64,000 nucleotides of DNA from Alphaproteobacteria bacterium (GCA_965228895.1 OZ245842.1:992001-1056000), one strand, 5' to 3'. Counted from the first letter of the stretch, positions 45,401-46,663 are shown. Notes: a model not told the origin generated them from the sequence alone. Made by a program: numbers and translations.

Positions 45401-46663
45401 ATGGCGCGTATCCCACGGATCCCCCAGCGCTCAGACATTGAGAACCTGGATCTGAGAAAACGTCCCTCACCGATGGGGCGCAAGGAAGAATTGCACGAGC
45501 GCATGGCGCGTGAACTCACCAACCTCAAACGCGACCGGCGCTTCTGGGAGGGCGACAAGGCGTACCAGCGATATGTCCAACGCCAGTTCGAACGCGTCTA
45601 TAACGACCCCTCTGGCCAACCCCAACCGCTCCGCATCGGCCCGCCGAAGATATTCGCAACGGATATTGAGCCGTTTGTTCGTCACGAAAACAAACAAACT
45701 TCGCATTCATCTGTTGCAAGCAAACATAGCTTAAAACAACGAGGAATGGCGAACGCAGCTGGAACAGGTCGACATCCTCGTCAAAATGTCGAAACAAGCG
45801 AAACAACGCCGGAGATCAGCGGCCAATCCACCGATCCGACAGCGTCTGAATCGCCGAAAGCGAAAGATCGCATGTTTCGTCGCAGCGGCACGAGATCAAC
45901 AGATAGTATGTGGGACAAGTTTATTGGTTTGGTGGACGTCTACTTCACCGATCGCGATGACCCTGTAGAAAGCGGTCAAGCCAAAGCGCAGGAGACATTG
46001 AAGCAGTTTCGGCAATTGAATTGGCCGACCGCCGAGATGCTACTTAACCATTTTCTTTCAGGTTCAGGGGAGGACGTCACAGTCCCCGCCGAGTTTGTCA
46101 AGGATTACAGGTCGCTCGACGAAGGATACGAAGGGGTTCTCGAAAACTTCTCCAGGTGGTTCGTGGGAGATATAGCAGACTCAAACTTCGGTGCCGCTGT
46201 GTTACCCATGCGAGAAGGTGCACAGATCACACTTGGCATTCAACACGGCAGGCGTAACGTGTCATTGGATGATCTCGTAATGTGGGAATCCGCGTTTCCT
46301 GGAGCAGGCGAGACCCTCAATCCAATCGATAAACTCGCATTAGATGACGAAGTACACGCTTCGATCGGCGGCGGCACGTTGCAAGGCTATGCAACTAGCC
46401 TCACCCTCGTTCGCGTGGGCAACACCGTGCGAATCACGGGTGTCATGCAGTTCCGAGTTGAAGATGAGTATGTCTTCGACCCTGGCCATTGGCTGGATTT
46501 CGATCAGCTCCAAGACGCTGGACTTGCAAAAGCCTTTTGGGTGCGGAGTGAACCATGGACGAGGGAGGTGGAGGGTGTGATCGTCCTGAGGGACGGTGAA
46601 CCAGTGAGCTCTAAGATTTGGGTCACTGATGACACTGGTCTAACTGGCAAGTTTCCAGACTGA
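45401..46663 (+). CDS. Orphan modular protein; putative toxin (phage scaffold-like N-terminal motif, low-complexity linker, colicin M-like C-terminal domain)
   Basis: Clean 420-aa ORF with RBS AAGGAGA. Motifs DRRFWEGDKAYQRYVQRQF and LLNHFLSGSG...HASIGGGTL...ITGVM....DEYVFD...GLAKAF. The CDS is solid; the function is inferred. Confidence 0.6.
   Translation: MARIPRIPQRSDIENLDLRKRPSPMGRKEELHERMARELTNLKRDRRFWEGDKAYQRYVQRQFERVYNDPSGQPQPLRIGPPKIFATDIEPFVRHENKQTSHSSVASKHSLKQRGMANAAGTGRHPRQNVETSETTPEISGQSTDPTASESPKAKDRMFRRSGTRSTDSMWDKFIGLVDVYFTDRDDPVESGQAKAQETLKQFRQLNWPTAEMLLNHFLSGSGEDVTVPAEFVKDYRSLDEGYEGVLENFSRWFVGDIADSNFGAAVLPMREGAQITLGIQHGRRNVSLDDLVMWESAFPGAGETLNPIDKLALDDEVHASIGGGTLQGYATSLTLVRVGNTVRITGVMQFRVEDEYVFDPGHWLDFDQLQDAGLAKAFWVRSEPWTREVEGVIVLRDGEPVSSKIWVTDDTGLTGKFPD

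Follow-up and report, generated by a model that had tools for sequence, protein, structure and literature searches.

Interbacterial toxins are sorted by their front part, which decides how the protein travels. Short terminal sequences can also carry a protein into a phage head: the internal proteins of T4 possess an N-terminal capsid-targeting sequence that takes the passenger into the procapsid, and synthetic cargo fused to the tail of the P22 scaffold enters the procapsid as well. A copied scaffold tail has been described for CpmB of SaPI1, where the C-terminal helix-and-hook copies the scaffold tail of helper phage 80alpha, binds the same coat site, and competes for it (PMC5644958). For polymorphic toxins fused to MuF, packing into phage heads with subsequent delivery to target cells has been predicted (PMC3482391). 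Among bacteriocins of the colicin M (ColM) type, pectocins use a borrowed ferredoxin domain for uptake, and the immunity proteins include membrane-anchored, two-cysteine types (PMC5821083). In the portions of the literature that were searched, we found no description of a scaffold tail fronting a chromosomal toxin. Here, we describe an alphaproteobacterial toxin-immunity pair in which a short helix-turn-helix near the front of the toxin is very probably homologous to the scaffold tails of T7-like prophages from the same bacterial class.

Organization of the toxin-immunity pair

The window, i.e., the whole stretch of DNA analyzed, consists of 64,000 nt from an Alphaproteobacteria bacterium (GCA_965228895.1, OZ245842.1:992001-1056000) whose genome measures 5.53 Mb, forms one contig, and is 98.7% complete. 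The following features were assigned, with positions counted from the first letter of the window:

45200..47250, no strand: low-GC islet with the toxin and immunity-like genes (composition profile, Pfam of flanking ORFs)
45401..46663, + strand: toxin ORF, 420 aa, no signal peptide by eye
45401..45472, + strand: aa 1-24, basic, poorly conserved N-terminus (alignment A1; pLDDT 43-54)
45506..45607, + strand: aa 36-69, scaffold-tail-like module (hhalign 95.6%, 94.5%, and 94.7%; pLDDT 83-87; 83% identity)
45608..45676, + strand: aa 70-92, conserved extended segment (82% identity; invariant columns D69 to P91)
45677..45901, + strand: aa 93-167, hypervariable Ser/Thr-rich disordered linker (13% identity; pLDDT 26-46)
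45902..46660, + strand: aa 168-420, folded toxin domain (model, Foldseek, VIA-align, Atlas features)
46463..46477, + strand: aa 355-359, D-E-Y-V-F, partial look-alike of the ColM signature (alignments A1 and A3)
46700..47215, + strand: immunity-like ORF, 171 aa, TTG start, with a hydrophobic N-terminal helix followed by a two-cysteine domain

A composition profile showed that the islet has a GC content of 52-57%, vs. 63-68% in its surroundings. Pfam matches of the flanks placed it between a TetR gene on one side and cobT on the other, with TetR, an amine oxidase, and CobT as the flanking products of the toxin locus. In a sister species, two tandem toxin-immunity pairs were found between the same two flanking genes, and the source genome was found to have three such pairs, the two further toxin paralogs each being trailed by membrane-protein genes. 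Neither the toxin ORF nor the immunity-like ORF matched any family in Pfam, NCBIfam, PADLOC, or PHROGs. No promoter-like site was found at the locus, and a LexA-like half site over the toxin's ribosome-binding site was at chance level (5 found, 4.7 expected). One weak terminator-like site was observed inside the ORF, on the opposite strand.

Loci of the toxin family are surrounded by housekeeping genes. Among 115 neighbor ORFs of 11 loci, phage, T4SS, and T6SS families were not matched at E<=1e-5, phage head or tail genes were absent, and no defense genes were noted. The sole secretion-like neighbors, of the FliI and FliJ (flagellar) types, lie several kb away from a gene in genome G055 that encodes the C-domain only. 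Eighteen ORFs downstream of toxins, from 8 of 8 loci examined, had W-F-x2-G-W-x6-C, R-P, a second C, and W-P in common, and were arranged in arrays of one to three genes. One or more hydrophobic helices, with a topology assigned by eye, precede the conserved motif, and the predicted immunity-like ORFs resemble known ColM immunity proteins that are anchored in the membrane and have two cysteines (PMC5821083). The conserved N-part, variable C-part, adjacent immunity gene, and several cassettes per genome strongly support the designation of the islet's toxin gene and the gene downstream of it as a toxin-immunity pair of the polymorphic kind.

Full-length relatives of the toxin occurred in 12 clusters among 5.8 billion, all with an identical build, and region searches of the same cluster set produced nothing beyond the toxin's own family. 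A profile of the N-part matched 18 of 1.84 billion representatives, always N-terminally; the matches of approximately full length that were aligned carry the same C-domain, and the remaining ones are shorter and fragment-sized. Within the toxin's own protein family the ColM-like C-domain is the sole partner of the module, and the C-domain was also found behind other N-termini. Mean pairwise identity, calculated from A1 without its truncated row P0011 (11 of 12 rows), was 83% for aa 36-69, 82% for aa 70-92, 13% for the linker, and 48% for the C-domain.

In an AlphaFold model of the toxin (20 sequences, mean pLDDT 72.5), the N-part has helices at aa 25-44, 46-49, and 53-67 (pLDDT 83-87), so that the module is built from the end of helix 25-44, a turn, and helix 53-67. 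Residues 70-92 adopt neither helix nor strand and belong to an extended stretch that runs to about aa 96, and aa 97-167 have no confident structure. The stretch quoted in the sequence-only reading, aa 38-67 (45512-45601) of a 420-aa ORF at 45401-46663 on the + strand, matched exactly and falls within the module. The linker that the same reading had described as setting this stretch apart from the C-terminal domain was likewise recovered, as the Ser/Thr-rich aa 93-167 with a pLDDT of 26-46. Taken as a whole, the data strongly support a leaderless toxin in which a helix-turn-helix module (aa 36-69) and a conserved extended segment are connected by a hypervariable, disordered linker to a C-domain whose predicted fold is colicin-M-like.

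Most model blocks of aa 168-420 had pLDDT values of 80-96, with three at 54-70. When the domain was compared to the PDB with Foldseek, ColM-type bacteriocins occupied 9 of the best 10 rows and the C-domain of the T6SS effector BtpeA the tenth; the best row had an E of 4.8e-3 and a probability of 0.98, and no row reached E<=0.001. VIA-align, which is independent of Foldseek, matched the BtpeA C-domain (9jdi; Z 7.2), syringacin M (4fzl; Z 6.7), pectocin M1 (8jc1; Z 6.3), PaeM (4g76; Z 6.0), and colicin M (3da4; Z 5.3), with 141-187 residues aligned and all Z values below the advised safe level of Z 8, under which a match may reflect a common arrangement. By Atlas features, the C-domain lies near the DUF3289, DUF6402, and Colicin_M clusters (0.92-0.96). 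Pfam scans of the toxin family gave no match to PF14859 (Colicin M), a six-frame genome search with PF14859 was silent on the toxins and on its controls alike, and genome searches with PF11692 and PF19940 did not match the toxins. Sequence searches of the PDB with the N-profile and the whole-family profile returned rows at chance level only.

The ColM signature is DxYDx5HR (PMC5821083). The toxin has D355-E-Y-V-F followed by D-P-G-H-W, retaining just the D-x-Y (then F) of this signature; in its relatives D-x-Y-D-F is frequent and the H-R is not conserved, the motif being likened by sequence rather than by its place in the fold. The fold predicted for aa 168-420 is described here, with modest scores, as closest to those of ColM-type bacteriocins and a T6SS effector C-domain. 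Standing against a ColM assignment are the predicted nature of the fold, Z values below 8, the silence of PF14859, and the partial signature. From these comparisons we infer that the gene pair is a toxin-immunity module of the colicin-M-like kind, with a predicted enzyme activity and a predicted immunity protein topology. The C-domain and its immunity partner form a family outside Pfam, and with them the colicin-M-like toxins appear to reach a new bacterial group.

Relationship of the N-terminal module to phage scaffold tails

When 401 genomes of the same bacterial class were searched with the family profile, nine places were found outside the family, all matching only positions about 16-73. 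Five of the nine coincide with the C-terminal end of ORFs no longer than about 290 aa (in genomes G104, G126, G175, G118, and G355), and these ORFs are PF05396 scaffolds, four of them at 35-58 bits and that of G118 split into two ORFs with 23 bits each. Each of the five scaffold genes is preceded by a T7-type portal gene (PF12236). Matches at scaffold C-termini had been named in the sequence-only reading as support for its proposal. A PF19821 capsid gene was found downstream of the scaffold in G126 and G355 (loci L061 and L064), and a T7-type terminase domain is present at the scaffold locus of G104. The narrow profile A2 detected 11 out-of-family places, of which five were scaffold tails (G123, G034, G126, G355, and G139); the scaffolds of G123, G034, and G126 were identified by reading and by their position between portal and capsid genes, not by Pfam. 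The remainder consisted of three paralogs in G070, one N-terminal fusion in G159, and two short frames.

The module opens at least three other protein types besides the toxin family. With the family profile, three places were located near the N-terminus of other proteins (two in G070 and one in G103), and a further match occurred in a 61-aa ORF of G049. Both G070 proteins from this search match PG_binding_1; in all, this genome has three paralogs with near-identical N-parts, a PG_binding_1 domain, and divergent C-termini. The G103 protein has no Pfam match and a peptidoglycan-binding-like segment by eye only, and G159 provides a further N-terminal fusion of the module. N-terminal copies fused to different toxin domains had been named in the sequence-only reading as further support, and the proteins of G070 (three), G103, and G159 carry the module near the N-terminus of other architectures. 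Since the module was found both at scaffold C-termini and in other architectures, its likeness to a scaffold tail is supported as homology.

Profile-profile alignment gave a similar result. Using hhalign, the toxin family aligned to A8, a set of six same-class scaffolds, with a probability of 95.6% (P 1.1e-8, 34 columns), and the alignment spanned toxin aa 36-69 and the scaffold's last 35 residues. The narrow, 12-sequence A2 profile aligned to the same-class scaffolds at 94.5%. The A8 scaffolds had been chosen with the toxin profile, and the test was therefore repeated with five independently found scaffolds, namely those upstream of capsid genes located by a PF19821 search. This independent set was aligned at 94.7% (P 6.3e-8) with a score of 61.8, and 0 of 100 shuffles reached the real score, the maximum being 23.4. 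In addition, the positions that are invariant in the toxin family and in the scaffolds coincide. In view of the independent set and its shuffles, the helix-turn-helix of aa 36-69 and the last C-terminal residues of PF05396 scaffolds from same-class T7-like prophages are very probably homologous. The toxin shares the scaffold tail alone and is not itself a scaffold; the ends of the scaffolds coincide with the module, and aa 70-92 have no counterpart in them.

The sequence-only reading had likened this stretch to the tail of T7 gp9. The tail given there was correct, as the T7 gp9 record ends with those residues plus six more. The likeness held for the PF05396 tails of the same class (94.5-95.6%) but was only weak (38%) for T7 gp9 and T7-like scaffolds proper. 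PF05396 itself did not match the toxin even at E<=10. Among close relatives, it matched 4 of 12 as N-parts (best E 0.0022) and 1 of 11 as full-length proteins, and it matched 8 of 17 further relatives with E 0.007-0.26 and 12-17 bits, below the gathering score of 27.1 bits; the matches of the relatives were confined to the last 30-50 profile positions. A "head assembly" family, phrog_1052, matched 4 of 12 close relatives with a best E of 0.018. The toxin family (A4) was aligned by hhalign to ten diverse T7-like scaffolds including T7 gp9 (A5) with P 3.3e-4 and a probability of 38% over 25 columns, none of 150 shuffles of the tail columns reached the real A4-A5 score, and the narrow A2 profile gave P 0.032 against T7-like scaffolds. 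Within T7 gp9, the module aligns weakly to residues 276-300. The toxins did not stand out when a 45-column HMM of the T7-type tail was run on the genome's 61,137 ORFs: the window protein ranked 1582nd and the other two paralogs 66th and 575th. A tblastn search of 50,697 phage records with aa 1-92 returned nothing below E = 4, and an Atlas search with the N-part gave no usable match. The similarity of the module to T7 gp9 and T7-like scaffolds proper, as judged from these alignments, is weak.

A partner for the module was proposed earlier to act in trans from a resident podovirus-like prophage or GTA-like particle. The source genome (98.7% complete) had no match to PF05396, PF12236, PF19821, PF05065, T7 gp10, or the A8 scaffold profile, meaning that no T7-type portal, scaffold, or capsid was found, and the resident-partner version of the idea is weakened. 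Delivery by a T6SS was set aside as the genome has no Hcp, and an HK97-type GTA or prophage head was set aside as it has no PF05065. In the class at large, a T7-type portal was present in 115 of 401 genomes and a T7-type capsid in 45 of 151. Five of the 11 genomes with an N-terminal module protein had a T7-type portal, which is no clear enrichment over the 115 of 401 for the class, and the kin among them are non-independent. The type of scaffold tail varies together with the capsid group, a covariation that shared descent could explain. The matching tail was seen in 1 of 33 genomes of the source organism's own family, and G002, a genome of the same genus, harbors a T7-like element with another tail type and a divergent capsid.

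Possible roles of the module

Our verdict is that the protein is a polymorphic toxin with a co-opted scaffold tail. Binding of the module to a capsid would be plausible. Among the candidate mechanisms, we would rank loading into capsids ahead of a bacteriocin that works without them, with mimicry directed against phages in third place. If the first applies, the module would be a cargo-loading tag by which the toxin is packed in trans into T7-like procapsids and carried to the envelope of an attacked cell, a possibility that we advance tentatively. The module would retain the presumed job of the scaffold tail, i.e., binding the inner face of a T7-type coat protein, and when a matching T7-like phage multiplies in the producer, the toxin would be taken into procapsids in trans. 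It would then exit the producer cell together with phage particles and, upon attack by a particle, reach the envelope of the target cell, where the putatively periplasm-acting, lipid-II-directed domain would do its work. Kin would be shielded by the membrane-anchored immunity protein.

Several observations speak in favor of trafficking: no other part of the protein is as well conserved as the module, more than one architecture begins with it (with variable C-termini in the three G070 paralogs), its passengers are leaderless and predicted to be envelope-directed, and the immunity-like genes occur in arrays. The capsid route in particular would be favored by the probable origin of the module, the covariation of tail type and capsid group, the frequency of T7-type head genes in the class, and the matching scaffold in one genome of the organism's own family. 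Against capsid loading, neither a portal nor a scaffold or capsid of T7 type turned up in the genome, yet three toxin copies are kept; portals are not clearly enriched among genomes with N-terminal module proteins, the element in G002 has the other tail type, and the neighborhoods lack phage head and tail genes. Coat binding by T7-type scaffold tails is presumed by analogy to other phages. A folded cargo of 250 aa would need retention and then ejection, and scaffolds normally exit the procapsid. Moreover, what a host gene would gain by traveling with an infecting phage is hard to see. A more general version, in which the scaffold-tail tag lets any matching phage pack a chromosomal toxin and inject it into the envelope of the next cell, we judge to be unlikely. 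If true, it would represent capsid-based delivery of polymorphic toxins in trans and without a resident machine, and cells that survive the phage itself, e.g., immune lysogens, would be killed by the packed toxin.

The toxin might instead be an ordinary diffusible bacteriocin, released by lysis and imported as colicin M is, with the captured hairpin and aa 70-92 binding a receptor, a translocation partner, a release factor, or a chaperone. The lack of T7-type head genes and of Hcp in the genome agrees with such a protein, as do the loci amid housekeeping genes and the modular layout of delivery part, toxin domain, and membrane immunity gene described for ColM types (PMC5821083). Residues 70-92, being absent from scaffolds, imply that the N-part does more than a scaffold tail, and pectocins are ColM toxins with a foreign domain borrowed for uptake. 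However, inspection by eye revealed no TonB-box-like motif, nor is there a recognizable receptor-binding domain. Scaffold tails sit within capsids, so it is not obvious how mimicry of them would lead to a surface receptor. The parts of bacteriocins that bind receptors also usually diversify, whereas the module is the best-conserved part and keeps the scaffold-invariant residues. On balance, we consider a bacteriocin of this kind doubtful, and slightly less probable than loading into capsids.

An anti-phage role is also conceivable, in which the tail copy would bind the coat protein of an invading T7-like phage, either as a decoy scaffold that disrupts assembly of the head or packaging of DNA, or as a sensor that frees the toxic domain and thereby aborts the infection. 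Coat proteins are known triggers of defense systems, and the homology of the module to a scaffold tail would suit such a role. T7-like elements are frequent in the class and no resident one was found, as expected if such phages are excluded. A precedent exists in CpmB, whose competition with the scaffold of the helper for coat protein is harmful to the phage (PMC5644958). On the other hand, PADLOC families match neither gene, and the 115 neighbors include no noted defense genes. The membrane-anchored, two-cysteine immunity-like arrays and the polymorphic C-termini mark interbacterial toxins, not decoys, and in the cytoplasm, where the coat would be met, no target is evident for a cargo that is directed at lipid II or binds peptidoglycan. 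We regard defense as an unlikely function of the protein.

Finally, a basic, aromatic helix-turn-helix that arose by chance or convergence, with no history or function in common with scaffold tails, is very improbable: although the shared stretch is just 34 residues, all Pfam T7 profile matches fall below the cut-off, the T7-type tail HMM failed to single out the toxins, and tblastn of the N-part against the phage records yielded nothing below E = 4, three scaffold sets (one chosen without the toxin profile) gave hhalign values of 94.5-95.6%, shuffles reached the real scores in 0 of 100 and 0 of 150 cases, the invariant positions of both families coincide, and out-of-family matches fall on the last residues of scaffold genes (5/9 and 5/11).

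Comparison with known systems

In its closest predicted folds for aa 168-420, the toxin resembles the ColM-type bacteriocins colicin M, PaeM, syringacin M, and pectocins M1 and M2, and like them it is leaderless, has its delivery part in front, and lies next to a predicted membrane-anchored immunity gene. It differs from them in having no PF14859 match, a partial signature, an unrelated N-part, and a new immunity family. With the PF05396 and T7 gp9 tails it shares a 34-residue helix-turn-helix with the same conserved positions. In the toxin this module is N-terminal, whereas in the scaffold it is C-terminal; the rest of the scaffold is missing, and the toxin gene is not located between portal and capsid genes.

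As in SaPI1, a non-phage gene appears to contain a copy of a scaffold's presumed coat-binding tail. CpmB, however, belongs to a phage satellite, for which it serves as a small dimeric scaffold and alters capsid size, whereas the tail copy of the toxin is N-terminal, toxin-fused, and beside an immunity gene, with no recognizable satellite. The MuF toxins similarly have a toxin domain joined to a part of phage head assembly, but are encoded in prophage remnants, next to genes for terminase, portal, and capsid. The present family has no MuF domain and is found amid housekeeping genes, in a genome without matching head genes. As described in the sources consulted, neither CpmB nor the MuF toxins have a chromosomal toxin that begins with a scaffold tail; here, the front part is very probably a copy of a phage scaffold tail, on genes that lie outside any phage. 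If the tag binds coat protein, host toxins would ride phage heads, or hosts would use scaffold mimicry against T7-like phages.

The proposed function resembles that of the T4 and P22 tags, in that a short terminal tag would load a passenger protein into a procapsid. Those tags are phage-encoded or engineered, whereas the genes described here are chromosomal toxin genes whose products would act in trans. Should the module bind a coat protein, its 34 residues would constitute a natural signal for loading T7-type capsids.

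T7-type head genes and scaffold tails in the class

T7-type head genes proved very frequent across the bacterial class of the window (loci L060-L064, L073 and L075-L104): 115 of 401 genomes encode the portal (PF12236), and the capsid (PF19821) was found in 45 of 151. They are single copy for the most part, ~1-Mb genomes are among the carriers, and 22 capsids from different families share 69% per-column identity. In contrast to this frequency, a class-type scaffold (a PF05396 scaffold of prophages in the same class) matched only 4 of the 50,697 phage records searched. The distance between portal and capsid is large in some genomes, with roughly 60 kb separating them in G175 and roughly 22 kb in G118. 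In G002, a genome of the window's genus, one ORF has a C-terminus of a different tail type, D-x-D-F ... H-P-D-H ... L-Y-x3-Y-P, which is common to scaffolds adjoining the divergent capsid group:

L071 7020-7832, (+), G002 ORF after the T7-type portal, phrog_3742 match (E 1.7e-43)

The toxin islet and C-domains without the module

In the sister species G001, of the window's genus, the same islet (amine oxidase/cobT flanks) holds two tandem toxin-immunity pairs (L031 5921-10366), and stop codons were observed inside several copies in relatives. The window protein is identical to P0001, the database representative, except at aa 361 (window 46481-46483), which is P in the window versus L in P0001. 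Open frames of 119-722 aa carrying the toxin's C-domain without the scaffold-tail module were found in G055, as well as in G178, G253, G081, G103, G158, G070, G116, G192, G334, G350, and G149. The G055 protein contains D-K-Y-D-F, and its gene is followed by one for a multi-helix membrane protein:

L023/L039 6941-7801, (+), G055 C-domain-only protein, 286 aa

Other proteins carrying the scaffold-tail module

The module was also found at the start of proteins with other C-terminal parts and as an ORF of its own, the neighbor of which matched a phage family of unknown function (phrog_25889, E 1.5e-7). No T7-type portal was found in G159 in the class-wide portal search.

L110 1351-2268, (+), G159 protein, module at start, C-part unrelated and unannotated
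L059 2033-3373, (+), G103 protein, module at start, C-part unrelated and unannotated
L024/L040 965-1150, (-), G049 ORF of 61 aa, nothing but the module
L024/L040 632-958, (-), adjacent G049 ORF, phrog_25889 match
L105 367-1806, (-), G070 paralog 1, module + PG_binding_1
L114 406-1836, (-), G070 paralog 2, module + PG_binding_1
L115 397-3114, (-), G070 paralog 3, module + PG_binding_1

By eye, the toxins show a second short motif, F-A-x-[DE]-x-[EK]-P, about 20-30 residues past the hairpin (window 45608-45676), and similar-looking stretches in the fusion proteins of G070 and G103; scaffolds stop upstream of its position.

G070 also harbors a T7-like prophage with a matching scaffold tail (L073), about 2 Mb from the paralogs. 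The front of the three paralogs, consisting of the module, the PG_binding_1 domain and a Pro-rich linker, is near-identical, and their coiled-coil C-termini diverge from one another, a pattern also seen in polymorphic toxins.
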